37,385 bases of DNA from a virus (Duplodnaviria > Heunggongvirae > Uroviricota > Caudoviricetes), in the IMG/VR virus record IMGVR_UViG_2913123054_000004; one strand, written 5' to 3'. Positions 1 through 28,556 of this stretch are shown in pieces; position 1 is the first letter of the stretch, and the number at the start of each line of letters is the position of its first letter. Both the position numbers and the translations under genes were made by a program. The notes under the pieces are model-generated. The model did no database searches. It was given only the letters and a program-made list of their open reading frames with translations, and was not told the origin of the DNA.

Positions 1-1017
1 TCACACTTCTAGCGTTGCGAGGGGGTTGAATTTCAGAGCCGTCTCAAGATGATCGGGTGCTAAATGGGCATAGCGCATAGTCATTTTTATATCGTGATGT
101 CCGAGGATTTTTTGCAAAGCAAGGATATTTCCACCCGACATCATGAAATGCGCCGCAAACGTATGGCGCAGAACGTGTGTCAGTTGACCGCGAGGGAGCA
201 CGATAGACGTTTTTTCCATCACGGATAAAAATTGAAAATAGCAGTCTGTGAAGAAATTGAACCCATCAAGCGCCATGATCTCTTCGTAAAGCTCTTTACT
301 GATAGGGATGCTTCTGTTTTTCTTCCCCTTTGTTCTTACAAAGGTAATTCGGTATTTGGTCACCTGTGAGCGGGTAAGATTTACGGCTTCACGCCAGCGT
401 GCGCCTGTGCTTAAGCATATCTTAACTACCAGTGCCAGAATTGGGTCCTGACGTTTGCAATCAGCCAGCAATTCAACAATCTGCTCATGGGTAAGCCATG
501 CCATCTCTTTTTCTGCGATGGTGAATTTTCGCATGTTCTCCAGTGGGTTCGGATACGACCATTCGCCCAGGCGGGATAGTTCGCTAAAAACACTACTTAG
601 ATAGCTTTGCTCCAGGTTAATGGTGACCGGGCTTGCTCCTTTCTTCCATTTCTCGCTGAAGTAGATCTCACCTGTCAGGCGTTTATCTCGATAGTGGGCA
701 AACATTTTAGAGGTGAGATCAGTTGCAAGGGGATTGCCCAGAGCGTCAACCATCAGCAGCAATTTGTCATAGACATGCTGCCCAGCAGTCAGAGATTTAC
801 CATGTAGTTTGAACCATAGCTCAACCACGTCTTTCAGCGTTCGACGATCCATTGATTCACCCAGCCAGGGCTTTACTTCGGTTTCTTCCATCGTGTGACG
901 CTCAAAAGCCAGAGCTTCGCCTTTGGTGGAGAATTGTTTACGCACACGACGTCCACTACGTCCGGCGGGGTAACATTCGCAAAGCCATTTTCCTGTGGTG
1001 AGTTTTCGTACTGCCAT
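1..1017 (-). CDS. int: Tyrosine integrase, P2/186 type
   Basis: 338-aa ORF with tyrosine-recombinase C-terminal motifs (LSTGARWREA, HVLRHTFAAHFMMSGG, MTMRYAHL). Stop codon sits at positions 1-3; the terminal gene position is as in P2. Confidence 0.9.
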   Translation of the reverse strand: MAVRKLTTGKWLCECYPAGRSGRRVRKQFSTKGEALAFERHTMEETEVKPWLGESMDRRTLKDVVELWFKLHGKSLTAGQHVYDKLLLMVDALGNPLATDLTSKMFAHYRDKRLTGEIYFSEKWKKGASPVTINLEQSYLSSVFSELSRLGEWSYPNPLENMRKFTIAEKEMAWLTHEQIVELLADCKRQDPILALVVKICLSTGARWREAVNLTRSQVTKYRITFVRTKGKKNRSIPISKELYEEIMALDGFNFFTDCYFQFLSVMEKTSIVLPRGQLTHVLRHTFAAHFMMSGGNILALQKILGHHDIKMTMRYAHLAPDHLETALKFNPLATLEV

Positions 1018-1098
1018 AAAAAATGCCCTCCAGTGGAGAGCATTCTTACTGTATATATAACCAGTGTCAATGTATTAGATACATGTTGTCATACATCA

Positions 1099-2076
1099 TC
1101 ACTTTTTGGTAATGATGTCATCATTTGCTGCTGATTTTTTATCTACAAGTGAGCCTAAAATGTTAAATAAATTTGGAGGTGGCTGCGTTTTATCTGCGAA
1201 TGCAGAATTAGCTGACATATTCCAATCTTTAAACACATCAATAGCATCTTGTTTTGTTGCAGTTGAACCATAAATTTGTAAGAAGACCTCACCAAACATT
1301 AGAGCATGTTGTCTGTCTTTTCTTATGATTGCTTCATGTGTGTATTTTTTTGAATTGTTTAAACAAAAATAAGAAAGCCAAGAAAGTAATGCAACCCCAA
1401 GTAAGCCTCGAGTGAAATAATAAAAAAGTTCAATGGGGGTAGTATCTTTTATATCGATTTTATAAAAAAATGTTAAAAAGGCGGCGCTTATAGATAATAA
1501 TGAAAATAGTATTCCGGCTATCGCCCAATTGTAAGACATTGTAGTGAAGTCTTTATCGTCCTGCTGTAGTTTTGCTTTGACGCCTTGCACATATTCAGGA
1601 ACCTTTTCGTCAATTTTCTTTTGTTGAATTTTGCTTGAAAGTTCTTGGTTTTTAAACTGTAGTTCTTTGTTTTTGATGTGTTGGACTTTTAGCTGTGATA
1701 CTAGTTTTTCTTTACTTTCTATTTCATTTGACAATTCCATTTTCAACTTTTCCATTTGCTCTGAATGAGCGTTATGGTTTTTTTGAAACTCGCGTAGTTT
1801 ATGTTCTAATTCCTCAATTTTTAAAAGGTACTTATCTGCTTCACTGTTTTGCAATGATGTATGGTCAGACATGAAGGGGGCATACTTATATTCTTTTTTA
1901 GAAAAATTTCGACTGTAAGCATCAAATAGCATATCGAATTCATCAAACGCTAGAGAATCCAATAGGTTTTTCAAAGTATTATAGGTGTCATTGGTTAAAT
2001 GTGATTTTAATTCTCCTAATTTAATACTTCTAGACGTGTATTTTTCACTATTGCTTTTATAATCAGAACCACTCAT
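1099..2076 (-). CDS. Hypothetical protein: N-terminal coiled-coil region, two predicted transmembrane helices, C-terminal domain; AT-rich moron
   Basis: 325-aa ORF, markedly AT-rich and K/E/N-rich. Hydrophobic segments IAGILFSLLSISAAFLTFF and LLGVALLSWLSYF. Inserted between int and cI where P2 and 186 have no gene of this size. Confidence 0.6.
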   Translation of the reverse strand: MSGSDYKSNSEKYTSRSIKLGELKSHLTNDTYNTLKNLLDSLAFDEFDMLFDAYSRNFSKKEYKYAPFMSDHTSLQNSEADKYLLKIEELEHKLREFQKNHNAHSEQMEKLKMELSNEIESKEKLVSQLKVQHIKNKELQFKNQELSSKIQQKKIDEKVPEYVQGVKAKLQQDDKDFTTMSYNWAIAGILFSLLSISAAFLTFFYKIDIKDTTPIELFYYFTRGLLGVALLSWLSYFCLNNSKKYTHEAIIRKDRQHALMFGEVFLQIYGSTATKQDAIDVFKDWNMSANSAFADKTQPPPNLFNILGSLVDKKSAANDDIITKK

Positions 2077-2088
2077 TCCAATATCCTT

Positions 2089-3033
2089 TTATAATTCTTC
2101 TATCAGAATAAATTTGCATTTTGCAATAACATCAATATCTGAAATTTTACATTCAAATGATAAATCATTGTCTGAAATTTTTAATCTTCCTACAGGTATT
2201 CTAGTTAGGGTTCGAATGCTCACTTTTCCTTCTATTTTAACAATCCATTTACCATCTGTAATTTCATCGAATGATTGATTACATAGGTATGTTTTTTTTT
2301 CGGTGCTAACAATCAATGGTAATTGGATTGAGTCTGGTAGTAACGCTTTATCAAGCATATAGAAATTTGAATCAAATAGATTCCCGTCAGTAATTTTTTT
2401 GTGAGTAATAGCAATTACATCATTTCTTGCATCGTCAAACTTTGGGCCTTTACCAGTAGTTAGCCACATTAGTGAAGTACCCGTTTCGAGAGCGCACTTA
2501 ATTATCCAGTCTGAAGGAAAAACATCACGCATATATCTTGTGGCTAATGTGCTTTTTGAAATACCTAAGTGATCAGCTAAGGCTTGGCGAGTCTTATAAC
2601 CGTAAGCCCTAACAATTCGCTCTATTGCTTCCTTGCCACCCCGAGAATAATCAATGATGTTTTCATTGTCGAACTTTGGTTGTTTATAGTGAACGTCATG
2701 ATAAGAACCATCTTCGGAGTGTGTTTCAACATGCTGTTCTGGTGAAGGAGATGGCATTTGTTCGTCATCATCTGAACCAAATGCTAGCCATTTAATTGAT
2801 GCTCCTGTTTCCATTGAACAGATAACAATCCAATCTGCAGGAAATGTATCGCGGGCATATCTGTTAGCCATCGTGCTTTGGGAAATACCTAGATGGTTAC
2901 AGAATGCTTGGCGTGACTTGAAGCCATAAGCCATGAGTATCCGCTCGATTACTTTCTGACCACCACGATTTTGTATGACAACGGCTTTCATATCGTCATC
3001 AATATGGCGAAATGTGAATTTTTGAGTTGACAT
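2089..3033 (-). CDS. cI: 186 CI-type immunity repressor carrying two tandem copies of the N-terminal HTH domain
   Basis: 314 aa. Residues ~20-85 and ~125-195 are paralogous (IERILMAYGFKSRQAFCNHLGISQSTMANRY...CSMETGASIKWLAFG versus IERIVRAYGYKTRQALADHLGISKSTLATRY...CALETGTSLMWLTTG), separated by an acidic/Pro linker. C-terminal part resembles the 186 CI oligomerisation domain (WIVKIEGKVSIRTLTRIP...FEC). Confidence 0.8.
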   Translation of the reverse strand: MSTQKFTFRHIDDDMKAVVIQNRGGQKVIERILMAYGFKSRQAFCNHLGISQSTMANRYARDTFPADWIVICSMETGASIKWLAFGSDDDEQMPSPSPEQHVETHSEDGSYHDVHYKQPKFDNENIIDYSRGGKEAIERIVRAYGYKTRQALADHLGISKSTLATRYMRDVFPSDWIIKCALETGTSLMWLTTGKGPKFDDARNDVIAITHKKITDGNLFDSNFYMLDKALLPDSIQLPLIVSTEKKTYLCNQSFDEITDGKWIVKIEGKVSIRTLTRIPVGRLKISDNDLSFECKISDIDVIAKCKFILIEEL

Positions 3034-3062
3034 ATTCTTTATGTGAACCTATTCTCCGTTTT

Positions 3063-3079
3063 GTGATGTTGTTATCACG
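3063..3079. promoter_or_regulatory. Inverted repeat GTGAT-N6-ATCAC in the cI/apl intergenic region, candidate operator overlapping a possible rightward early promoter (TTGTGA ... TTAAAA)
   Basis: Dyad symmetry read directly. Sits between the repressor gene and the first rightward early gene. Confidence 0.3.
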
Positions 3080-3121
3080 ATTAAAACCAGCTCACCACAA
3101 GCTAAAAGGAGATGTTGCATC

Positions 3122-3343
3122 ATGACCCCTAACATTTCAATAACTCTGAATACGCCACACGTCACAATTGAGCGTTATAGCGAACTTACTGGTCTTTCTA
3201 TCGTCACCATCAACGATATGTTGGCTGATGGTCGCATCCCTCGCCATCGCCTTCGGAAAGACAAGAAAAGAGAAAAGGTGATGATCAACCTTGCTGCTCT
3301 TACCGTTGATGCACTTACTGATTGCAATGTTGTATTCAACTAG
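3122..3343 (+). CDS. apl: Apl/Cox-like excisionase and transcriptional regulator
   Basis: 73-aa basic protein as first rightward gene opposite cI. RBS AAAGGAGA upstream. Position equivalent to P2 cox / 186 apl. Confidence 0.6.
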
Positions 3344-4715: not shown

Positions 4716-4949
4716 ATGCGTAATATTGAAACCCTCACGACTAAAACCGGACCGGATGATGCAGGGCTTAATATTTTACTGACAGAGGCTCGTCTGGAAG
4801 AACGCCGGGCAAGGGCTGAAGCAATGGCAGCTCGCCTTGATAGCCTGGCGTGTCATATCACATCCCGCCAGCTAAACCACGTCGAAGCAGCAGAACTACT
4901 GCGTGTAACTGCTGAAGCAATCCAGAACGAAGCGCAGGAGATCCACTAA
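4716..4949 (+). CDS. Hypothetical early protein
   Basis: ATG at 4716 with RBS AGGAGA 7 nt upstream (ORF track uses a TTG at 4710). Stop overlaps the next start (TAATG). Confidence 0.55.
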   Translation: MRNIETLTTKTGPDDAGLNILLTEARLEERRARAEAMAARLDSLACHITSRQLNHVEAAELLRVTAEAIQNEAQEIH

Positions 4950-5176
4950 TGGCTGATGCAATGGATCTCGTACAGCAGCGCGTTGAAGAAGAACGCCAGC
5001 GCCATATCCGTGCTGCCCGTGCCAAAACGCCGGGCGTGTCCCGCGTGCTTTGCATTGAGTGTGAAGCGCCAATTCCGCCAGCACGCCGCCGCGCCATTCC
5101 AGGTGTGCAGCTTTGCATTACCTGTCAGGAAATCGCAGAGCTGAAAGGCAAACATTACAACGGAGGTGCTGTATGA
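4949..5176 (+). CDS. TraR/DksA-family C4 zinc-finger protein
   Basis: 75 aa with CxxC-N17-CxxC (CIECEAPIPPARRRAIPGVQLCITC). This family commonly sits upstream of the replication gene in P2-like phages. Confidence 0.7.
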   Translation: MADAMDLVQQRVEEERQRHIRAARAKTPGVSRVLCIECEAPIPPARRRAIPGVQLCITCQEIAELKGKHYNGGAV

Positions 5177-6030
5177 GCACCATCCTGAAATGGGCGGGAA
5201 ATAAAACCGCAATTATGTCCGAACTGAAAAAACACCTTCCTGCTGGCCCGCGACTGGTTGAACCTTTCGCGGGTTCCTGTGCTGTGATGATGGCGACGGA
5301 TTATCCAAGCTATCTGGTTGCGGATATTAATCCTGATTTAATCAACCTCTATAAAAAGGTTGCCGCTGATTGTGAATCGTTTATATCTCGCGCCAGAGTT
5401 TTATTTAAGGAAGCAAACAGGGAGGTGGCTTATTACAACATAAGGCAGGAGTTTAATTACTCAACTGAAATTACTGATTTCATGAAAGCGGTATATTTCC
5501 TGTATCTCAATCGTCACGGTTACCGTGGTTTATGTCGCTATAACAAGAGCGGGCATTTCAACATTCCCTACGGTAATTATAAAAATCCGTATTTCACTGA
5601 AAAAGAAATTCGTGCATTTGCAGTAAAAGCCCTGCGGGCAACGTTTATCTGCGCCAGCTTTGATGAAACGCTGGCGATGTTGAAGGCGGGGGATGTGGTG
5701 TATTGCGATCCGCCTTATGACGGCACGTTTTCCGGTTATCACACTGACGGCTTCACTGAAGATGACCAGTATCACCTGGCATCCGTTCTTGAACATCGAT
5801 CATCTGAAGGTCATCCGGTCATTGTTTCTAACAGTGACACATCCCTGATTCGTTCGCTGTATCGCAATTTCACTCACCACTACATCAAGGCAAAACGCAG
5901 CATCGGCGTGTCGGCTGGCGAGAGTAAATCTGCAACAGAAATCATTGCTGTTTCCGGGGCGCGCTGCTGGGTGGGATTTGATCCTTCGCGTGGCGTGGAT
6001 AGTTCTGCTGTGTACGAGGTGCGTGTATGA
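5173..6030 (+). CDS. dam: DNA adenine methyltransferase (Dam-like, D12 class N6-MTase)
   Basis: 285 aa from ATG 5173 ([11 protein letters not shown]). SAM-binding motif PFAGSCAV and catalytic DPPY (VYCDPPYDG). Start overlaps the upstream stop and the stop overlaps the A start (ATGA). Confidence 0.85.
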
Positions 6031-8441
6031 GTCATGACGATATGAGCAACTCTAGCGGCTTTAACGAGGTCGCTGTAGCATTTTCATGGAACGGCCCGAA
6101 AAAGGCCATTAACCCTTATCTGGAACCGGCGGAAGTTGCGCCGGAGTCTGCACTTTCAAACATGATCACTCTGTACGCTGCCGATAACGAGCAGGAACAG
6201 CAGCGCCGCGAGGCACTGAGTGATCAGGTCTGGGAACGTTATTTCTTTAATGAATCCCGTGATCCTGTCCAGCGCGAAATGGAGCAGGATAAGCTCATTA
6301 GCCGGGCAAAGCTGGCGCATGAACAGCAGCGTTTTAACCCGGACATGGTCATTCTGGCAGATGTCAGCGCCCAGCCTTCTCATATCAGCAAGCCGCTGAT
6401 GCAACGTATCGAATACTTCAGCAGCCTGGGCAGGCCAAAGGCTTATTCCCGCTATTTGCGTGAGACGATTAAGCCATGTCTGGAGCGACTGGATTGTGTA
6501 CGTGACAGTCAGCTATCTGTTTCTTTCCGTTTTATGGCAAGCCATCAAGGGCTGGAGGGTCTGCTGATCCTGCCTGAAATGAGCCAGGATCAGGTGAAAC
6601 GCCTGTCCACCCTGGTAGCAGCGCATATGAGCATGTGTCTTGAGGCCGCTTGTGGTGATTTGTACGCCACCGATGACGTTAAGCCAGAAGAAATCCGCAA
6701 GACATGGGAAAAGGTGGCTGCGGAAACCCTGCGTCTGGATGTTATCCCGCCTGCGTTTGAGAAACTTCGTCGGAAAAGAAACCGCCGCAAACCCGTGCCC
6801 TATGAACTCATACCGGGTTCGCTGGCGCGTATGTTGTGCGCCGACTGGTGGTATCGAAAATTGTGGAGGATGCGTTGCGAATGGCGGGAAGAGCAGTTGC
6901 GTGCTGTCTGTCTGGTCAGCAAAAAAGCATCTCCCTATGTCAGCTATGAAGCCGTGATGCATAAACGTGAGCAGCGCCGCAAGTCGCTGGAGTTTTTCCG
7001 TTCTCATGAACTGGTGAACGAAGACGGAGACACGCTGGATATGGAAGATGTGGTAAACGCCAGCAGCAGCAACCCGGCACATCGCCGCAATGAGATGATG
7101 GCCTGCGTTAAAGGTCTGGAGCTTATCGCGGAAATGCGTGGTGACTGCGCCGTTTTCTACACTATCACCTGTCCGTCACGTTTCCATTCCACGCTCAACA
7201 ACGGCAGACCCAACCCGACCTGGACAAACGCGACGGTAAGGCAAAGCAGCGATTATCTGGTCGGCATGTTTGCTGCATTTCGTAAGGCAATGCATAAAAC
7301 CGGGCTGCGCTGGTATGGCGTGCGGGTGGCTGAGCCGCACCATGACGGTACTGTGCACTGGCATCTTATGTGCTTCATGCGTAAAAAAGACCGCCGCGCC
7401 ATCACTGCATTACTGCGTAAGTTTGCCATCCGTGAAGACCGCGAGGAGCTGGGTAATAACACGGGACCACGCTTTAAGTCTGAGCTGATTAACCCGCGCA
7501 AAGGAACGCCGACAAGCTACATCGCGAAATATATCAGTAAAAATATTGACGGACGTGGTCTGGCCGGCGAGATCAGCAAGGAAACGGGTAAATCCCTGCG
7601 TGATAACGCCGAATACGTGAATGCCTGGGCGTCTCTGCATCGTGTTCAGCAGTTCCGCTTCTTTGGTATTCCGGGACGTCAGGCTTACCGTGAACTTCGC
7701 TTGCTGGCTGGTCAGGCGGCAAGGCAACAGGGTGACAAAAAAGCAGGTGCGCCGGTACTGGATGACCCGCGTCTTGATGCCATCCTGGCTGCTGCTGATG
7801 CTGGTTGTTTTGCCACCTACATCATGAAGCAGGGCGGCGTACTGGTTCCCCGCAAATATCACCTTATCAGAACCGCTTATGAAATTAACGAAGAGCCGAC
7901 CGCCTATGGCGATCACGGTATTCGTATTTATGGCATCTGGTCACCCATTTCAGAGGGCAAGATCTGCACTCATGCAGTGAAGTGGAAAATGGTTCGTAAG
8001 GCCGTTGACGTTCAGGAGGCGGTAGCCGACCAGGGCGCTTGCGCCCCTTGGACTCGTGGCAATAACTGTCCCCTTGCTGAAAATTTGAACCAGCAGGAGA
8101 AAGATAAATCAGCTGATGGGGACACCAGAACGGTCATTACCCGCATGGATGACAAGGAGTTGCACGATTACCTGCACAATATGAGCAAAAAAGAGCGCCG
8201 GGAACTGGCAGCAAGGTTACGCCTGGTGAAACCGAAACGGCGTAAAGACTATAAACAGCGAATTACAGACCATCAGCGACAGCAGCTCGTCTATGAACTG
8301 AAGTCCAGAGGATTTGATGGCAGCGAGAAAGAAGTCGATTTACTTCTTCGCGGCGGCAGTATTCCGTCAGGAGCAGGCCTGCGTATCTTCTATCGGGACC
8401 AGCGTCTGCAGGAGGATGATAAATGGCGGAACCTGTATTAA
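6027..8441 (+). CDS. A: Replication initiation protein A (rolling-circle endonuclease)
   Basis: 804 aa with HUH-type motif (TVHWHLMCF) and tyrosine-containing YIAKYISKN. Size and position as P2/186 gene A. Confidence 0.9.
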
Positions 8442-10047: not shown

Positions 10048-10962
10048 ATGCCATACCAATTGGTAGAGCTTAGCCCCGTAGCTAACGATCTTGAACAGTT
10101 AGGAACCAAAGAGAAGTTTTGGTTCTATTTCTCCGATGACACTGTAAATTTGCAGTTGTTTAAGTACTCTAGGCCAGGTACTGGCGAGCATTGGTCTGAA
10201 AAGTGTGCTGCTGAGTTATGTCATTTGCTTAACATTCCACATGCTAGCTATGATTTGGCGCGATACAATGGTCGATTCGGTGTGGTGACTCAGAATATCA
10301 TTCCATCTGGTTTCCGGATGGTAATGGGAAATGAAGTGCTTCACAGTTCGACATTCGATTATCCTGGGCCTTTACAAGCCGGGGAAAAGCCGGTAAGGGT
10401 CAGAGAACACACTGTCACAAGGGTCTTGGGTTGTTTAGATAGGGAATCTATCAAGCCTCCTCCGAGTGTATATGATCTAACCGGGCTAAATGCAGCAGAT
10501 GTATTTTGTGGATATTTGATGCTCGATGCACTTGTGAGTAATCAAGATCGCCACCATGAAAATTGGGCAATCATGCTTAACAATGAAACTGGTGAGCAGT
10601 TTTTGTGTCCAACATACGATCATGCCGCTAGTTTAGGAAGGGAGATGTTAGATGATGAGCGTAACGAACGGCTTAATACTAAAGATAAAAATCGACAAAT
10701 CCCATGTTTTGTAAGAAAAGCTCGCTCTGAGCTATTCAAAGCAAAAACTGATAAAAAGCCCTTGCTGACTGTTGAAGCATTTCAACATGCAGTTGAAGGG
10801 AGAGTTGCCGCTCGCGACCATTGGTTAGGTAAGTTGAGCGTTTTAACAGAAGATTCCATTACAGATGTGTTTAACCAAGTGCCTTCATCGTGTATATCCG
10901 ACAGTGCACGTAGATTTGCAACGTTAATGGTAATGGAAAATCGCAGAAGGTTACTAGAATGA
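10048..10962 (+). CDS. HipA-family serine/threonine kinase, short form (core kinase domain only)
   Basis: 304 aa. P-loop-like LGTKEKFWF near the N-terminus, catalytic-loop motif DALVSNQDRHHENWAIM, metal-binding LCPTYDHAAS; same order as in HipA/HipT. RBS AGGGA upstream. Confidence 0.8.
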   Translation: MPYQLVELSPVANDLEQLGTKEKFWFYFSDDTVNLQLFKYSRPGTGEHWSEKCAAELCHLLNIPHASYDLARYNGRFGVVTQNIIPSGFRMVMGNEVLHSSTFDYPGPLQAGEKPVRVREHTVTRVLGCLDRESIKPPPSVYDLTGLNAADVFCGYLMLDALVSNQDRHHENWAIMLNNETGEQFLCPTYDHAASLGREMLDDERNERLNTKDKNRQIPCFVRKARSELFKAKTDKKPLLTVEAFQHAVEGRVAARDHWLGKLSVLTEDSITDVFNQVPSSCISDSARRFATLMVMENRRRLLE

Positions 10963-11699
10963 CTAATACAAACTCCGTTTACGTCGCATGGCAGGCACCA
11001 GATACCAGAGACTGGCATGTTGTTGGTAACTTGCAAGAGCGCAAATCGGGGTATGTTTTCAGGTATACCAAAGGTGCTCTTAAATCTTCTAAATTTACAA
11101 AGTTTAGCGGCATGAGTGATGTTCGTGAAACTTATGTATCGGAAGAATTGTTTCCTCTTTTTAAAAATCGCCTTTTATCACCGAGACGTCCAGAGTATCC
11201 GAGTTTCATTAAATGGCTTGGATTTGAAGAAGATAAGGTAAATCCTATCGATATTCTTGCTCGCTCGGGAGGCTTACGAAGCACTGATCAGCTGCAGATT
11301 TTCAAAAAAATTGATTTTGATTCTGATGGTAACTTTGAGCATTTTTTCTTCTTACATGGACTTGGTTACTTGAATAGCTTAGCTAATGCTCGTGTATCTG
11401 AATTGAAACCGGGGCAAATTTTGCGTCTTTGCTTGGATCTTCAAAATGAATACGATGGGGATGCTGTTGTCGTTCGTGCAGATAAACCAGCTGAAATCGT
11501 TGGTTACTGCCCTAGGTATTTAAGTAATGACATCAAGAAGATGTTATTGGATGATCCAAAATCAATCACTTTAACGGTCGAAAAGATTAGTGATGATGCT
11601 CCTCATAACTATCGGTTATTATGTAAATTATCAGGGGTACTAAGCCAAGCCTGTCAATCGACGCTGATTCCTCAAGATGAGTTTGAACCTATTGAGTAA
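10959..11699 (+). CDS. HipS-like (HipA N-terminal subdomain-like) protein with C-terminal HIRAN domain; putative partner/antitoxin of the kinase
   Basis: 246 aa. Start overlaps kinase stop (ATGA). N-terminal half shows HipA N-subdomain-like patterns (EELFPLFKNRLLSPRRP, PIDILARSGGLRSTD). C-terminal ~90 aa has HIRAN hallmarks (LQNEYDGDAVVV...EIVGYCPRYL). Confidence 0.75.
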   Translation: MTNTNSVYVAWQAPDTRDWHVVGNLQERKSGYVFRYTKGALKSSKFTKFSGMSDVRETYVSEELFPLFKNRLLSPRRPEYPSFIKWLGFEEDKVNPIDILARSGGLRSTDQLQIFKKIDFDSDGNFEHFFFLHGLGYLNSLANARVSELKPGQILRLCLDLQNEYDGDAVVVRADKPAEIVGYCPRYLSNDIKKMLLDDPKSITLTVEKISDDAPHNYRLLCKLSGVLSQACQSTLIPQDEFEPIE

Positions 11700-19654: not shown

Positions 19655-20048
19655 AGCGGTGCCTTATGTCCGCAATAACCCGGACAAACTGCATCTGTTT
19701 GTGGATAACGGTTCGCTGGTTGCCACGGGGGCCAGCTCCATGTCGTGGGAGTACCGTTACACCCTGAACGCGGTGATTGAGGATTTCAGCGGCGACCAGA
19801 ATCTGCTGATGGCCCCGGTTTTGCTGTGGCTGAGGGATAACCAGCCCGATGCCATCAATAACCCGGCGTTACGGGAAAAACTATTCACCTTTGAGGTGGA
19901 TATTCTGCGCAACGATGTCTGTGATATCAGCCTGAACCTGCAACTGACGGAGCGTGTGCTGGTCAGCACTGACGGCAGTGTGTCGAGCGTTGAAGCTATA
20001 GCGGAACCTGATGAACCTGAAGAAATGTGGACGGTGAAACGTGGCTGA
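19596..20048 (+). CDS. R: Tail completion protein R (P2 gpR-like)
   Basis: Matches gpR; an in-frame GTG at 19616 is the start that aligns best with P2 gpR. Confidence 0.8.
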   Translation: MRVRSETVNKPQSLRHALNKAVPYVRNNPDKLHLFVDNGSLVATGASSMSWEYRYTLNAVIEDFSGDQNLLMAPVLLWLRDNQPDAINNPALREKLFTFEVDILRNDVCDISLNLQLTERVLVSTDGSVSSVEAIAEPDEPEEMWTVKRG

Positions 20049-20487
20049 ACTGCAGAAAGTGGACGACTGGCTGAGTGCCTTGCTGGCGAATCTGGAGCCA
20101 GCCGCCAGAAGCCGCATGATGCGCCAGCTGGCGCAGGAACTGCGCCGGGCACAGCAGCAGAACATCAGGATGCAACGCAATCCTGATGGCAGCAGCTATG
20201 AACCGAGGCGAGTAACAGCACGCAGTAAAAAAGGCCGCATCAAACGGCAGATGTTTACAAAACTTCGCACCAAAAAATACCTGAAAATCGCCGCCAGCAC
20301 GGATTCTGCCAGCGTGCAGTTTGAAGGTAAGGTGCAGCGTATTGCCCGCGTTCACCATTACGGACTTCGTGACCGAGTCAGCAAGAAGGGGCCTGAAGTA
20401 AATTATACTCAACGCCAACTACTAGGGGTCAACGAAAGCTCTCAGTTATTAGTTCGAGATGCATTGTTGCGTTTATTAACTTTTTAA
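20041..20487 (+). CDS. S: Tail completion protein S (P2 gpS-like); last ~30 codons AT-rich, possibly altered by the adjacent insertion
   Basis: 148 aa; N-terminal two-thirds gpS-like. Confidence 0.8.
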   Translation: MAELQKVDDWLSALLANLEPAARSRMMRQLAQELRRAQQQNIRMQRNPDGSSYEPRRVTARSKKGRIKRQMFTKLRTKKYLKIAASTDSASVQFEGKVQRIARVHHYGLRDRVSKKGPEVNYTQRQLLGVNESSQLLVRDALLRLLTF

Positions 20488-20504
20488 ATATCATCATTTA
20501 ATTT

Positions 20505-21064
20505 CTATTCATTATTTTTTAGTTTTTTGGATAAAAAGAATAGTCCAGCGATACATATGATCAATAGCACTACAGAAATAGAATTGTGAACTGTCCATTT
20601 GTCTGGGTCTATTACTGAAAGCATGAGTAGTATTACTGAAGCTATACCGAGCATTATAGGTTCTACTGCTTCATCAGGTCCTTTTGTTATAAGCATAAAT
20701 GCAAGTTGAAAACCACATGATACTGCGAGTGCTTTAGCAACATAACTTAGGGTTTTGATTTGTCGTATGTGGGCGAAGAATGGCTGTGATGATATATCGA
20801 TTGGCCAGAATGTATCCGCTAGTTCAACTGTACCCTTGAATAAAAGGAACCCTGTTAAGCCGATAAATATAAGACGTTGACAAAAAAATTGAATTCTATC
20901 TGCAGATTTTTCAGTTTCGGTTTTTTTTCGTCTTCAGGAGTTTTGAGTTCTTCCACCTTATATTTGAAAATATTCTTAATGTCTTTTTTAAACTGATTGC
21001 TTCCAAAGAACGCAATTGCAATGGCTGCGATTAATAAGGATGTTATTACGGATGTAGGCGTCAT
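20505..21064 (-). pseudogene. Membrane-protein moron split by a frameshift at a homopolymer tract (A8 at 20921-20928 or A7 at 20882-20888 on the coding strand)
   Basis: Two minus-strand ORFs (20855-21064 and 20505-20696); the downstream frame stays open back to 20933. One extra base in either A-tract would fuse them into ~186 codons with about five hydrophobic helices. Confidence 0.5.
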
Positions 21065-21076
21065 AACGAGCTAATT

Positions 21077-22971: not shown

Positions 22972-23569
22972 TCTGCTGCCATCGGGGTCAACTTCACTGG
23001 AGCGCCGACTGGCGCAAACGTGCAGCGGGATTTCTGATCTGCAGGTGCCGCTGCGTGACTTGTGGAATCCGGCTACCTGCCCGGTCAGCTTCCTGCCTTA
23101 TCTCGCCTGGGCGTTCTCTGTGGATCGCTGGGACGAGGACTGGACGGAAAGCGTCAAACGCCAGGTGGTGAAGGATGCTTTTTATATTCATCAGCACAAA
23201 GGAACCACCAGTGCCGTGCGGCGGGTGGTGGAACCGTTCGGATTCCTGATCCGCATTATTGAGTGGTGGCAGACCGGAGAAACACCGGGCACGTTTCGTC
23301 TGGATATCGGCGTGCAGGACCAGGGCATCACTGAAGATACCTATCTGGAACTTGAGCGACTGATAAGCGATGCCAAACCATGTAGCCGTCACATGGTCGG
23401 CATGTCCATCAACCTGCAGACCAGCGGCCCGCATTGGGTGGGAGCCGCCAGCTATCTTGGCGAAGAAATCACGATCTATCCGTATATCAACGAAACAATT
23501 ATTTCCGGCGGCACCGCGCATGAAGGCGGGGCGGTCCATGTTATTGACACAATGAGAGTGAATCCATGA
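22964..23569 (+). CDS. I: Baseplate/tail protein I (P2 gpI-like)
   Basis: 201 aa between J and the tail fibre gene. Confidence 0.8.
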   Translation: MNSLLPSGSTSLERRLAQTCSGISDLQVPLRDLWNPATCPVSFLPYLAWAFSVDRWDEDWTESVKRQVVKDAFYIHQHKGTTSAVRRVVEPFGFLIRIIEWWQTGETPGTFRLDIGVQDQGITEDTYLELERLISDAKPCSRHMVGMSINLQTSGPHWVGAASYLGEEITIYPYINETIISGGTAHEGGAVHVIDTMRVNP

Positions 23570-24942
23570 GCACAAAATTTTATACCCTGCTGACGGATAT
23601 TGGCGCGGCGAAACTTGCCAGCGCCGCCGCGCTCGGTGTGCCTGTAAAAATTACCCATATGGCGGTCGGCGATGGCGGCGGAACATTGCCAGCGCCGGAC
23701 GCAAAGCAGACGGCACTGGTAAATGAGAAACGCCGGGCTGCGCTGAATATGCTCTATATCGACCCGCAGAACAGCAGCCAGATTATTGCTGAACAGGTGA
23801 TCCCTGAAAACGAGGGCGGTTGGTGGATACGTGAAGTGGGCCTGTTTGATGAGTTCGGGGCATTGATTGCCGTGGGCAACTGCCCGGAAAGCTATAAGCC
23901 GCAACTGGCTGAAGGCAGCGGGCGTACCCAGACCGTGCGTATGGTGCTGATAACCAGCAGCACGGACAATATCACCCTGAAAATCGACCCTGCTGTAGTG
24001 CTGGCAACCCGCAAGTATGTGAATGATAAGGTACTGGAGCTGAAGGTGTACGTGGATGACCTGATGGCAAAACATCTTGCCGCACAGGACCCACATTCAC
24101 AGTATGCACCCAAAGAAAGTCCGACGTTTACCGGAACACCCAAAGCGCCAACGCCAGCGGCGGGGAATAATACTACGCAGGTTGCGACCACCGCGTTTGT
24201 ACAGGCGGCACTGCTCACCCTGATTGACGGTGCACCAGCCACGCTGGACACGCTGAAAGAAATTGCAGCTGCTATTAATAATGACCCGAAATTCAGTACC
24301 ACCATTAACAATGCGCTGGCACTCAAAGCACCGCTGTCGAGTCCGGCACTCACCGGAACGCCAACAGCACCTACTGCGGCACAGTCGGTCAACAATACAC
24401 AGATTGCCACCACGGCATTTGTGAAATCGGTGATTGCAGCAATGGTAGGCTCTGCACCTGCGGCACTGGATACGCTGAACGAACTGGCGGCGGCACTGGG
24501 GAATGACCCGAATTTTGCCACGACAATGCTTAATGCGCTGTCAGGTAAACAACCGCTGGACAATACGCTGACTAATTTGAGTGGAAAGGATGTTGCTGGT
24601 CTTCTCGCATTCCTGGGTTTGAAAAACGCCGCACAACGCGACGTTGGGACTGGCACAAATCAAATTCCTGACATGAACGCTTTTAGCTCTGGCTCTGGCT
24701 GGCAGAAATTACCTGGAGGCAGGATTCTGCAGTGGCGGGGAATAGACAATGGCCCTGGGGATATTACAAGCCCGCTACCCATTCCATTTCCAAATCGCGC
24801 AATAGGATGGGCAATTACGTCCGATTATGTACCAGGGTCAGGCGGAGTTGGCACAATAGCCGGGACGTGTACTGCAACGAATATCATTTCACGAAATACA
24901 AATGTGAGCACTGGTGGTAGCGCTATCGTAGTGGGGGAATAG
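23566..24942 (+). CDS. H: Tail fibre protein (P2 gpH-like) with internal tandem repeats and a variable C-terminal domain
   Basis: 458 aa; conserved N-terminus; two ~73-aa tandem repeats (SPTFTGTPKAPT... / SPALTGTPTAPT...); Gly-rich C-terminal domain. Confidence 0.85.
   Translation: MSTKFYTLLTDIGAAKLASAAALGVPVKITHMAVGDGGGTLPAPDAKQTALVNEKRRAALNMLYIDPQNSSQIIAEQVIPENEGGWWIREVGLFDEFGALIAVGNCPESYKPQLAEGSGRTQTVRMVLITSSTDNITLKIDPAVVLATRKYVNDKVLELKVYVDDLMAKHLAAQDPHSQYAPKESPTFTGTPKAPTPAAGNNTTQVATTAFVQAALLTLIDGAPATLDTLKEIAAAINNDPKFSTTINNALALKAPLSSPALTGTPTAPTAAQSVNNTQIATTAFVKSVIAAMVGSAPAALDTLNELAAALGNDPNFATTMLNALSGKQPLDNTLTNLSGKDVAGLLAFLGLKNAAQRDVGTGTNQIPDMNAFSSGSGWQKLPGGRILQWRGIDNGPGDITSPLPIPFPNRAIGWAITSDYVPGSGGVGTIAGTCTATNIISRNTNVSTGGSAIVVGE
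24118..24558 (+). repeat. Two tandem ~219-bp coding repeats inside the tail fibre gene
   Basis: Repeat 1 24118-24336 and repeat 2 24340-24558, diverged at DNA level but clearly paralogous at protein level. Confidence 0.5.
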
Positions 24943-24944
24943 GT

Positions 24945-25367
24945 ATGAGAACGTATCGCTATGACGCAATAACAAACGCATTTTATCCGTATGAGCTACA
25001 GAATGAGTATGAACAAGCAGGGATGTGGCCGGAGTCGGGCCATGATGTGAATGAAGATATTTTTCAGCAATTCATCAACCCTCCCGCAGGTAAGGTGCGT
25101 GTTGCCGGGAATGACGGAATGCCAGCATGGGGGGATATTCCGCCACCGGCTCATGATGAACTCGTTGCGGTAGCAGATGTGAAAAAAGCAGCACTATTGG
25201 CAGAAGCGTCAGTCGTTATCGCCCCGCTGGCTGATGCGCAGGCGGGCGGTTATATCGATGACGCTGACGTGCCGCGACTGGCAGCATGGCAGAAATATCG
25301 CTATGCACTGACGAAAGTGGATACATCAACTGCGCCGGATATCACCTGGCCGCTGCAACCAGTGTAG
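24945..25367 (+). CDS. G: Tail fibre assembly chaperone (P2 gpG-like)
   Basis: 140 aa immediately after H. Confidence 0.8.
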   Translation: MRTYRYDAITNAFYPYELQNEYEQAGMWPESGHDVNEDIFQQFINPPAGKVRVAGNDGMPAWGDIPPPAHDELVAVADVKKAALLAEASVVIAPLADAQAGGYIDDADVPRLAAWQKYRYALTKVDTSTAPDITWPLQPV

Positions 25368-25471
25368 AAATCTTTAGTGTAAATCGTCAAAGATGCTGGC
25401 GACTTGATGATCGATGACGGTATCAGTGATGATAATTTACAGGTTGTACGGGAATAATACATGACAATTTG

Positions 25472-25513
25472 AATGGGGTATAATAGATAAATAATACATC
25501 ATTATACCCCATT
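25472..25513 (+). terminator. Hairpin (13-bp perfect inverted repeat) after the tail fibre genes, probable terminator
   Basis: AATGGGGTATAAT, 16-nt loop, ATTATACCCCATT, followed by TTCG. Confidence 0.4.
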
Positions 25514-25551
25514 TTCGCTATTATCTATTGGCAAAAATATTCTTAATGCCT

Positions 25552-26589
25552 TTATATTTGCCTACCTCCTAATAAAATGTGTGAGGTGTATTTGTTGGTT
25601 TTCAATAACCTTGCTACAATTATGCAGGTGGTTACAATAAGGAAAACAAATGAAGGGGTTATGATGAGGTTATATATGAGTGGATTTTCGCATAGGTTAT
25701 TAATGTTCACGTATGCCTCTATTCTGTAAAAAATAAACGACGAGATTATATAGATGGGAAAGGTGTAAGTACCGACAAAGGATGTGGCTCGTATAAATAA
25801 ATTGTTTTTCGTTGATAAAAATGTATAAGCATATATAAGCGATATGCTTCCGGCGAAGCCAATGAAGTAGCGAAATATAATAATGAATGATTGATGCCAG
25901 AAATCAACATTCTCATATGTCATTTTAGATATGTAAATATAATACTCTCTATTCCATAGGAGAAGCATGCCAATCCATGTTAATACGGATAACACACCAA
26001 TTTTGTGCCTATTTCTAGAGGCAAAATCTAAAATGCGATGGGCGGATATACCAGCGATAAAATAAGGGGCCATAAATTTAATTTTGTCCATATTCCAATC
26101 ATCTCCATATGCAAGGGATATACTAAATATCAGTAAATAAAGCACCACAGAATATTGTTTGCTTATTGAGTGACAAATAGTATAAACAATAGATACTGCA
26201 AAGAGTGCAGAAAGGAACCAGAAGGCGTAGATGGCTCCATATCTAATATTTATTAAATTTATATCTCTTCCCACAAAAATGGATTCAGCAATGAACCATG
26301 CAATGGATGGGATTATTAACTGCATGAATTTTCTTTTGATAATTGATGATGGTTTTCTCTTGAGAGAAAAATAGAAAAGATAGCCGCTAAGCAGCATAAA
26401 AAATGGCATGTGGAAGCTGTAAATGGTAATAAATAATGGGTTGTCAAAAAAATTTAAACTATCTTTTTTTACAAACTGAATTGAATGGCCCCACACGACA
26501 AAAATTATAGCTAATCCTTTCATTGAGTCTATAATGGAATTTCGAGTGCTGGGTGTCTCTGTTATAATAAGATGTGGTTCGTTTTTCAT
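25552..26589 (-). CDS. Acyltransferase family 3 membrane protein (O-antigen/LPS acetylase-like), probable lysogenic conversion gene
   Basis: 345 aa, ~10 hydrophobic segments, AT-rich; family-typical motifs GLAIIFVVWGHS and HMPFFMLLSGYLF near the N-terminus. Confidence 0.8.
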   Translation of the reverse strand: MKNEPHLIITETPSTRNSIIDSMKGLAIIFVVWGHSIQFVKKDSLNFFDNPLFITIYSFHMPFFMLLSGYLFYFSLKRKPSSIIKRKFMQLIIPSIAWFIAESIFVGRDINLINIRYGAIYAFWFLSALFAVSIVYTICHSISKQYSVVLYLLIFSISLAYGDDWNMDKIKFMAPYFIAGISAHRILDFASRNRHKIGVLSVLTWIGMLLLWNREYYIYISKMTYENVDFWHQSFIIIFRYFIGFAGSISLIYAYTFLSTKNNLFIRATSFVGTYTFPIYIISSFIFYRIEAYVNINNLCENPLIYNLIITPSFVFLIVTTCIIVARLLKTNKYTSHILLGGRQI

Positions 26590-26920
26590 TTAATTTGTCA
26601 ACTTTAGATTGAGTGGTATAAGAATTGCAACTAAACACTCGTGAGCTAATATTTACATATATTATCAATGATCATTAATTCAATCAATTAGGAATTGCTT
26701 TATTGTATGTAACAGATTCTCATTTTGGGGTAGATGCTACTATTGCTGTCATCACACCATAAATTAAGTCCATTCATATTAGATATCTTGGGTTGTTCCG
26801 GGAAGTACACGGCCACTATCAGTAAATGTGTGGTAAGAGCTTCACCAGTCGAACGTTTTTGAAAATACAGAGATAATGGCCAACAGGCATCATCCCCGGT
26901 TTTTATTTAGGGGGATGCTC

Positions 26921-27232
26921 ATGCTTATTGGCTATGTACGTGTATCAACAAATGACCAGAACACTGATTTGCAACGCAATGCGCTGAACTGCGCGGGATG
27001 TGCGCGGATTTTTGAGGATAAAATCAGTGGCACTAAGTCCGACAGGCCGGGACTGGCTGCAGCTCGCGCCAAAGGCAGAGTAGGTGGACGCCGTCCTAAG
27101 TTGACCACCGAACAGTGGGCACAGATTGGACGTTTACTCGAGGCCGGAGAATCAAGACAGCGTATTGCACTGATTTTTGATGTGGGTGTTTCCACCATTT
27201 ATAGAAAATTTCCGGCAAATAAGAGCAATTAA
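26921..27232 (+). pseudogene. Hin/Gin/Pin-type serine DNA invertase with in-frame internal deletion of most of the catalytic domain
   Basis: 103 aa: N-terminus [22 protein letters not shown]...DRPGL joins directly to the C-terminal HTH region ([20 protein letters not shown]...[10 protein letters not shown]). About 85 central residues are absent relative to Hin (~190 aa). Confidence 0.75.
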
Positions 27233-27383: not shown

Positions 27384-28556
27384 ATGGCTCAGGATTACCA
27401 CCACGGAGTGCGCGTTGTTGAAGTCAACGAAGGCACCCGATCCATTACCACGGTGAGCACCGCCATCGTGGGTATGGTCTGCACGGGCGATGATGCCGAT
27501 GCAAAAATGTTTCCTCTTAATAAACCCGTGCTGATCACTGATGTGCTGACTGCCAGCGGTAAAGCGGGTGAGTCCGGCACGCTGGCTCGTTCGCTGGATG
27601 CCATCGCTGACCAGGCAAAACCCGTGACCGTTGTTGTGCGTGTGCCCCAGGGGGAAACGGAAGAAGAAACCACAACCAATATCATCGGCGCAGTGACCGC
27701 CGAGGGTAAAAAAACAGGCATGAAAGCCCTGTTATCTGCTCAGTCACAGCTCGGCGTTAAACCGCGCATTCTCGGCGTGCCAGGTCAAGATAACAAAGCC
27801 GTTGCGACTGAGCTGCTGAGTGTGGCGCAAAGCCTGCGTGGGTTTGCCTACCTGTCAGCATATGGCTGCAAGACGGTGCAGGAGGCGATCACTTACCGTG
27901 AAAACTTCAGCCAGCGTGAAGGGATGCTGATCTGGCCGGATTTTATCAGCTGGGACACGGTGCTGAATGCCGAAGCAACGGCATACGCCACCGCGCGTGC
28001 GCTTGGCCTGCGCGCCAAAATTGACGAGCAGACCGGATGGCACAAAAGCCTGTCCAACGTGGGCGTGAACGGTGTCACCGGAATTTCTGCTGATGTGTTC
28101 TGGGATCTGCAGGACCCGGCAACCGATGCAGGTCTGCTTAACCAGAACGACGTCACCACCCTTATCCGCAAGGACGGTTTCCGCTTCTGGGGTTCCCGCT
28201 GTCTGAGTGATGATCCGCTCTTTGCCTTCGAAAACTACACCCGCACGGCGCAGGTGCTGATGGACACAATGGCAGAAGCGCACATGTGGGCGGTGGATAA
28301 ACCGCTGAATCCGTCACTGGCCCGCGACATTATCGAGGGTATCCGTGCCAAAATGCGCAGCCTGGTCAGTCAGGGCTATCTCATTGGTGGTGATTGCTGG
28401 CTGGACGAGTCGGTGAACGATAAAGACACGCTGAAAGCCGGGAAGCTCACCATCGACTACGACTACACGCCAGTGCCGCCACTTGAAAATCTGATGCTGC
28501 GCCAGCGCATCACCGATCAGTACCTGGTGAATTTCGCCAGCCAGGTCAGCGCGTAA
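27384..28556 (+). CDS. FI: Tail sheath protein (P2 gpFI-like)
   Basis: 390 aa; first gene of the FI-FII-E-T-U-D tail operon. Confidence 0.9.

Follow-up and report, generated by a model that had tools for sequence, protein, structure and literature searches.

A candidate O-antigen-modifying membrane acyltransferase in the apparent place of a decayed tail-fibre inversion switch of a P2-like Escherichia coli prophage

Membrane enzymes of the acyltransferase-3 (AT3) family O-acetylate the sugars of the O-antigen, which blocks phage adsorption and changes the serotype (PMC9558356), and AT3 acetylases carried by prophages of Shigella and Salmonella classically bring about O-serotype conversion, phage exclusion and the change of vaccine epitopes. 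In phage Sf6, the tailspike gene, a terminator and the acetylase gene oac follow one another, tailspike and oac being convergent. In Salmonella, OafA and OafB (GtrC family II) carry out a phage-associated, phage-blocking acetylation of the O-antigen (PMC9558356), and oafA adjoins a phage tail fibre assembly gene (PMC9426603). Here, we compare with these systems an acyltransferase gene found in IMG/VR record IMGVR_UViG_2913123054_000004. The window, that is, the whole stretch of 37,385 nucleotides that was analysed, is a complete P2-like (Peduoviridae) prophage of E. coli, which extends from the integrase gene (1-1017, minus strand) to ogr, with the host gene ybjL beyond it. The acyltransferase gene lies between the tail genes G and FI (coordinates of this and the other features are collected in Table 1).

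We established that the protein is, as judged from its sequence and predicted fold, a secure member of the AT3 family, in an uncharacterised subfamily of it. A hidden Markov model search matched it to Pfam Acyl_transf_3 at E=3e-26 and 92.7 bits (gathering cut-off 31), with protein residues 19-325 aligned to model positions 3-324 of 326, and a weak match to PHROG 3333, annotated 'O-acetyltransferase', was also obtained (E=6e-5). The AlphaFold2 model, made with 17 homologues, has a predicted local distance difference test score of 89.8 and a predicted template modelling score of 0.88; it is nearly all helix and shows about ten helices of membrane length. It thus has the ten-helix, pore-forming fold of the transmembrane acyl-CoA acyltransferases (TmAT), which have been unified structurally with the AT3 proteins (PMC12423673). 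HGSNAT, a TmAT superfamily member with solved structures, shares 11% sequence identity with the acyltransferase and differs from it in being a eukaryotic, lysosomal and larger N-acetyltransferase. A profile search of the PDB sequences gave no match at E<=1, and a BFVD fold search gave low-probability matches without meaning and nothing else. The AT3 motifs were scored on an alignment of 17 homologues. The motif that defines the family in the first transmembrane helix (TM1), R/K-X10-H with an invariant catalytic histidine (PMC7448272, PMC9833829), is present as K24-X10-H35; H35 is invariant in the alignment, and position 24 is a lysine in 15 of the homologues and an arginine in the remaining 2. 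In the second helix (TMH2), the stretch P62-F63-F64-M-L-L-S68-G69 corresponds to the FFXISG-type motif (F41 and G46 in OafA), and F64, S68 and G69 are invariant across the same homologues. The protein has no SGNH domain and no eleventh helix, and no neighbouring gene could supply them; it is therefore an AT3-only enzyme.

Some of these traits are shared with the described phage enzymes. Oac (OacA) of Sf6, OacB, OacC, OacD and the Oac of PhiV10 are likewise stand-alone AT3 proteins (345 residues here vs 333) with the R/K-X10-H pair in TM1 and an FFxxSG motif, and hhalign pairs K24 and H35 of the acyltransferase with R11 and H22 of Oac. OafA and OafB have the AT3 domain and the identical TM1 motif. 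The genomic setting is also comparable with that of Sf6 oac: both genes are prophage-borne, have a GC content below that of their flanks and are convergent with a receptor-binding tail gene, with a hairpin between the two. Here, the gene sits in a low-GC island with sharp borders (GC 0.31-0.34 over about 25400-26850, flanks at 0.50-0.58), and a stop-free run of 345 codons would arise by chance at GC 0.33 with a probability of about 2e-12. Since H, G and FI are all on the plus strand, the acyltransferase gene is antisense to the late tail operons. It is separated from the convergent G gene by a perfect 13-bp stem, the RNA fold of which (-22.6 kcal/mol, z = -5.1) was matched in stability by 0 of 200 shuffled sequences; the V-operon terminator of P2 stands at an equivalent relative position, and the hairpin is plausibly a bidirectional terminator. 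An earlier note, made from the sequence alone, had described an open reading frame (ORF) of 345 codons on this strand, coding for a polytopic membrane protein of the acyltransferase-3 family in an AT-rich island between G and FI; the exact ORF with its ATG start, the Pfam score, the motifs, the modelled helices and the GC profile bear this description out.

The same note had placed the gene at the Z/fun accessory position of P2. The P2 reference record puts fun(Z), antisense, in the G-FI interval, so that the two slots are positionally equivalent; both hold, between the late operons V and F and antisense to them, non-essential cargo of low GC content (0.33 here vs 0.328 for fun(Z)). The proteins themselves are unrelated, and homology to Fun(Z) was rejected (best BLASTP E = 2.7). 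Thus, the placement holds as regards synteny with P2 but not as regards the history of the slot, which in this lineage ancestrally held an invertible fibre segment and its invertase rather than fun. Neither this history nor the remnant of the invertase, a 103-residue ORF between the acyltransferase gene and FI, had been mentioned in the note.

Invertible tail-fibre segments of the Gin/Cin/Pin/Hin type include the G segment of Mu, the C segment of P1 and e14. In Cartapus, the closest phage relative of the window, as in over 1200 E. coli records, the gap between G and FI holds alternative genes for the chaperone and, on the minus strand, for the fibre tip, together with a plus-strand gene for a Gin-like invertase. 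The invertible segment of Cartapus is flanked by inverted repeats of 75 nt, each of which holds a gix/hix-like site of 26 bp (TTCTCGCATACC TT GGTTTGGGAGAA in the alignment of the left inverted repeat, IRL). Comparison by blastn showed that homology between the window and Cartapus spans H up to position 24675, left crossover site included, is absent over the next 2.2 kb, and restarts at 26852, precisely where the core dinucleotide of the right crossover site lies. The right site retains its core AA (26852-26853) and its outer half (26854-26865), whereas its inner half (26840-26851) has been replaced by island DNA and matches at 5 of 12 positions. In addition, the crossover cores are mismatched, TG in the left site vs TT in the right one. 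The invertase gene has suffered an in-frame deletion of 246 bp between short direct repeats, which removes residues 44-125 of 188 (82 residues of the catalytic domain) and fuses the first 43 residues, with the catalytic Ser9, in frame to an intact C-terminal helix-turn-helix. Since the remnant is 99% identical in amino acids to the Cartapus invertase outside the deletion, either the deletion is very recent or the short protein has been retained, for example as a gix-binding protein. In E. coli strain 2014C-3075, the equivalent gene is annotated by PGAP as a pseudogene with an internal stop.

Compared with Gin/Cin/Pin/Hin systems, the invertase, the left site and the outer right half are thus homologous to a working system, that of Cartapus and of the E. 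coli records just named (92-96% nucleotide identity), whereas the alternative fibre-tip and chaperone genes are absent, with the acyltransferase gene in their stead. Two inverted sites with matching cores and an active serine invertase, by which a Gin/Hin-type invertible segment is recognised, were not found at this locus. Because of the three lesions, namely the lost half-site, the mismatched cores and the crippled invertase, we consider the inversion switch to be fossilised. Its alignment with Cartapus indicates that the acyltransferase gene occupies the place of the former alternative fibre arm, and the locus would then be a record of how a host-range inversion switch gets lost and replaced.

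We then collected the relatives of the gene. The island occurs in one of 5426 complete E. coli genomes, that of 2014C-3075, a Shiga-toxin-positive clinical strain (PMC9729726), where it is 98.8% identical and the ybjL site is the same; the variable fibre tip and chaperone allele next to it matches one genome of the same set, the same one. In a collection of 5.8 billion proteins, the 90%-identity cluster of the acyltransferase counts 29 member sequences, and the contigs read for this cluster repeat the P2-like setting, truncated invertase included. Identity then drops to 48-56% for the next relatives; each one that could be placed is prophage-borne, and most have the gene convergent with that of a tail-fibre chaperone. 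In Citrobacter, in Kosakonia and in two metagenomic loci, all non-P2 myoviruses, the homologue is convergent with a Caudo_TAP chaperone gene and a fibre gene; one homologue adjoins P2 gpI, and one group (P0004) adjoins lysis genes. A second P2-like phage (L097, IMG/VR UViG_2773857903_000001), the tail genes of which are 81-85% identical to those of the window, likewise has a homologue, of 53% identity, between H and FI (5959-7038, GC 0.31). This phage has no invertase and no recognisable full-length chaperone, a 63-residue ORF (7144-7335) following its 405-residue fibre gene, and its allele is absent from the complete E. coli genomes. All close homologues have a GC content of 0.31-0.34 within genomes of about 0.5. 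In Cronobacter sakazakii (L003, 1695-4812), a 49% homologue is followed by a gtrB-like glycosyltransferase gene, a gene for a small GtrA-like membrane protein and one for a 608-residue protein; this would be a combined acetylation and glucosylation island. The 608-residue protein has no Pfam match and is probably of GtrC type, and it is followed by transposase and integrase remnants. In a P22-like prophage of E. coli, a more distant relative (38% identity, P0010) and a second AT3 gene stand between the genes for integrase and tailspike. In a scan of a contig collection, the relatives among the matches listed were about 30% identical and came from Bacteroidales and Clostridia; they are uninformative for context. 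The acyltransferase thus has the trait expected of a serotype converter, being prophage-borne and adjoining, directly or through its homologues, receptor-binding or O-antigen-modification genes.

We consider it likely, with a probability of roughly 0.6, that the protein is an AT3-only O-acetyltransferase of an O-antigen or lipopolysaccharide (LPS) sugar, which would bring about lysogenic conversion and superinfection exclusion. The parallels with the convergent tailspike and oac genes of Sf6 and with oafA make O-acetylation of the O-antigen or LPS the most likely mechanism, and a role in receptor or O-antigen modification, as the note had suggested, is consistent with the genomic context of the homologues. 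In such a mechanism, the acyl group, most likely the acetyl of cytoplasmic acetyl-CoA, would enter the central pore of the AT3 fold, where the conserved TM1 pair K24/H35 would help to bind and transfer it. The acetyl would then be placed at the periplasmic face on a sugar hydroxyl, the most likely acceptor being an LPS sugar used as a phage receptor, be it that of the O-antigen or another. If the gene is expressed in the prophage on its own, apart from the silent late operons, the surface of the lysogen would change; this would block the adsorption of phages that use the receptor, hence superinfection exclusion and fewer progeny lost on debris, and the altered O-serotype epitope would amount to lysogenic conversion. 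The gene itself would have come as low-GC foreign cargo, probably linked to the adjoining fibre tip and chaperone allele.

Several observations weigh against this reading. The acyltransferase is remote in sequence from Sf6 Oac (hhalign probability 20.6% over 153 columns), and no orthology to a characterised Oac was detectable. A tblastn search of 50,697 phage records (E<=1e-3) gave seven weak partial matches, at 26-35% identity and in phages of Gram-positive bacteria, and matched no enterobacterial or Oac-type phage (Sf6, PhiV10, D3-type). The best NCBIfam match, the equivalog NolL (NF042426, a fucose acetyltransferase), reaches 68 bits for a cut-off of 425, and membership of this group was rejected. 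The RXXR motif at the cytoplasmic face of the third helix, which is essential in Oac, OafA and OafB, yet 'highly but not absolutely conserved' (PMC7448272, PMC9833829), is not cleanly present: the corresponding stretch reads K85-R86-K87-F-M-Q90-L-I-I-P94, with a basic cluster that is present but shifted and a Q90 that is invariant in nine close homologues, and the arginines essential in Oac are not conserved. A consensus promoter scan found no site of at least 9/12 upstream of the ATG, and direct reading of the sequence revealed no clear Shine-Dalgarno motif before the start; a weak sigma-70-like candidate promoter, TTGATT-17 nt-TAATAT (26687-26659), was spotted manually in the upstream region. 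The four available alleles differ by three synonymous and three non-synonymous changes, too few to bear on selection. Finally, AT3 acceptors also include the enterobacterial common antigen (ECA), osmoregulated glucans, peptidoglycan and secreted products (PMC9558356), and it is we who infer the acyl donor, the acceptor sugar, the expression in the lysogen and the phenotype.

The locus also departs from the described systems in its organisation. The gene is carried by a P2-like myovirus, where it is flanked by tail genes and does not adjoin int/attP. OafA and OafB have an eleventh helix and a periplasmic SGNH domain, whereas the acyltransferase ends after helix 10 and no SGNH gene is nearby; its upstream region, with one GATC, lacks a Dam/OxyR GATC signature. 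Phase variation of the gtr/oafB Dam/OxyR type was rejected more generally, as the upstream regions of ten alleles and homologues hold at most one GATC each. Although it would work in the manner of a phage serotype-converting O-acetylase, the protein cannot be shown on sequence criteria to belong to Oac, OafA/B or NolL. Since its relation to the characterised phage O-acetylases is only distant, the label 'O-antigen acetylase type' given in the earlier note is an analogy and not a membership. With this qualification and that on the history of the slot, the note's reading held in each part that could be checked.

Alternatively, the protein could be a genuine AT3 enzyme with another acceptor, such as ECA (compare WecH), the osmoregulated periplasmic glucans (OpgC), colanic acid or capsule, or peptidoglycan, in which case the benefit would be a more robust envelope or the masking of a capsule receptor rather than a change of the O-antigen. 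The diversity of AT3 acceptors, the lack of a close characterised O-antigen acetylase, the fact that the most similar curated model is a fucose acetylase of Nod factors and the position of the P0004 homologues beside lysis genes rather than fibre genes all point this way. We nevertheless hold it to be unlikely, given that homologues are repeatedly linked to fibre tip, chaperone and tailspike genes, one of them standing beside gtrBA-like O-antigen glucosylation genes. To our knowledge, moreover, the housekeeping acylases of ECA and osmoregulated glucans are chromosomal core genes and not phage cargo. An inert passenger is quite improbable: the low-GC DNA would have arrived with the fibre tip and chaperone allele and be silent, for example through H-NS, without contributing anything. 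The GC content of 0.33 is typical of xenogeneically silenced DNA, and the absence of a clear promoter or ribosome-binding site, the rarity of the island and the decay of the adjoining invertase would fit. In contrast to such a passenger, the acyltransferase ORF is intact in four assemblies, although the adjoining invertase has its deletion and, in one strain, an extra stop; 79 invariant columns and the catalytic motifs persist among homologues of about 50% identity in different phage backbones; and L097, another P2-like phage, has a member of the family in the corresponding slot.

The slot itself calls for another comparison, since the Z/fun-equivalent position is a recognised defence locus of P2 phages (PMC13586616) and the same prophage has a PADLOC candidate system, PDC-M03, at its cos-proximal hotspot. 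The gene could in that case be a classical intracellular anti-phage gene (abortive infection, nuclease or sensor), in the way that fun(Z) blocks T5. This is very improbable: the protein is from end to end a polytopic AT3 membrane enzyme, without any additional domain, it shows no similarity to Fun(Z), and membership of a catalogued defence system was rejected, no PADLOC-DB 2.0 family matching it at E<=1e-3. We find it scarcely credible, lastly, that the gene lies inside a segment that still inverts, so that its expression or the fibre allele would phase-vary. In H, most of the left gix-like site survives, the right outer half is kept, and a Pin/Gin-type invertase acting in trans could exist elsewhere in the host; against this, the right inner half is lost, the cores differ and the cis invertase lacks residues 44-125, three independent lesions on which live inversion was rejected, and the orientation is identical in all four assemblies.

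It is possible, and we put this forward only tentatively, that the fibre tip, the chaperone and the acyltransferase form a mobile receptor cassette, and that an aberrant recombination by the Gin-type invertase at the core put it in place here. A Citrobacter prophage of unrelated backbone (L006) has all three genes in the same order and orientation, with identities of 48-51% for the fibre tip, 36-43% for the chaperone and 50% for the acyltransferase. Over six loci, acyltransferase and chaperone identities co-vary (77% and 68%, 64% and 63%, otherwise about 45-53% vs at most 37% or undetectable), and two loci with a common baseplate and fibre N-terminus (68%) differ in both chaperone and acyltransferase. 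The breakpoint falls exactly at the crossover core, which points to the serine invertase itself as the maker of the right-hand junction. The unit may thus move between unrelated myovirus backbones, so that a phage would always carry the enzyme that masks the receptor of its own fibre, and an aberrant event at the 2-bp core of the right site may have turned a two-state host-range switch into a fixed fibre with an exclusion gene. The sample is small, and the junction at the core could be a coincidence.

In the literature, we found no paper that links an AT3 gene or an O-antigen gene to the P2-like phages or to the hotspots of Peduoviridae; the surveys of P2 hotspots name no acyltransferases or O-antigen genes, and according to one of them the known accessory genes of P2-like elements are defences only. 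The acyltransferase is accordingly a somewhat unusual cargo for this phage family, yet a familiar kind of prophage cargo. If the O-antigen or LPS of E. coli is indeed acetylated, the G-FI slot of P2-like phages would also trade surface-modifying genes. The enzyme would further add to the AT3 family an uncharacterised subfamily with a lysine in place of the TM1 arginine and without RXXR, which could inform how AT3-only enzymes function when they have no SGNH partner. In practice, the relevance is modest, as the island is rare, its single host among the complete genomes being a Shiga-toxin-positive clinical isolate.

Table 1. Position of the acyltransferase gene and of associated features in the window (37,385 nucleotides).
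Feature	Position	Strand	Description
Acyltransferase gene	25552..26589	-	AT3-only integral-membrane protein (PF01757); ATG start, 345 aa, GC 0.33
Acyltransferase upstream region	26590..26851	-	AT-rich, GC 0.34; read directly
Candidate bidirectional terminator	25471..25514		Inverted repeat, perfect 13-bp stem, 100% complementary (arms 25472-25484 and 25501-25513)
Tail fibre H	23566-24942	+	Pfam Phage_tail_fib and Gp53-like_C; upstream of the island
Fibre chaperone G	24945-25367	+	Pfam Caudo_TAP; between H and the acyltransferase gene
Variable C-terminal tip of H (to 24942) and chaperone G	24676..25367	+	Cartapus H homology ends at 24675
Left gix-like crossover site, inside H	24602..24627		TTCTCGCATTCC TG GGTTTGAAAAAC; aligned to Cartapus IRL
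Right gix/hix-like site remnant	26840..26865		Aligned to Cartapus inverted repeats
Gin/Hin-type serine invertase remnant	26921..27232	+	103 aa; Pfam Resolvase (partial) and HTH_7; PHROG DNA invertase
Tail sheath FI	27384..28556	+	Right border of the accessory slot; Pfam Phage_sheath_1, Phage_sheath_1C and Gp18_domIII_N
Small hydrophobic ORF	20505-20696	-	63 aa; S-V slot
Small hydrophobic ORF	20855-21064	-	69 aa; S-V slot

The prophages of the E. coli relative P0010 (L007-L010, P22-like, yfdC/argW site) carry three cargo genes at 4916-7870, between umuD-like and tailspike genes: a 354-residue AT3 protein, a 334-residue protein with a weak HL_N-beta match and P0010 itself, a 289-residue AT3 protein. 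The contig collection has 844 blocks in which P0010 is indexed, and this may be a widespread multi-gene locus for O-antigen modification.

The window holds further cargo. The cos-proximal hotspot between gpA and gpQ (old/tin position) contains two plus-strand genes of GC about 0.37, at 10048-10962 and 10959-11699, both of which match the PADLOC candidate system PDC-M03 (A at E=2e-122, B at E=7e-93); in Pfam, A gives a weak HipA_C-like kinase signal and B a HIRAN domain, and nothing else was matched. Between the integrase and the CI-type repressor, an ORF of 325 residues on the minus strand (1099-2076), with no Pfam or PADLOC match, sits in the part of the window with the lowest GC content (901-3300, minimum 0.27) and may be another moron. 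Lastly, the interval 20488-21075, between S (20041-20487) and V (21076 onwards), has a GC content of about 0.32 and encodes two small hydrophobic proteins on the minus strand. In the otherwise near-identical prophage of 2014C-3075 (L001), the same interval holds an AAA ATPase gene and a gene for a DUF4435 protein (PARIS-like); since its content differs between the two prophages, the S-V interval is a third variable cargo slot of this phage lineage.

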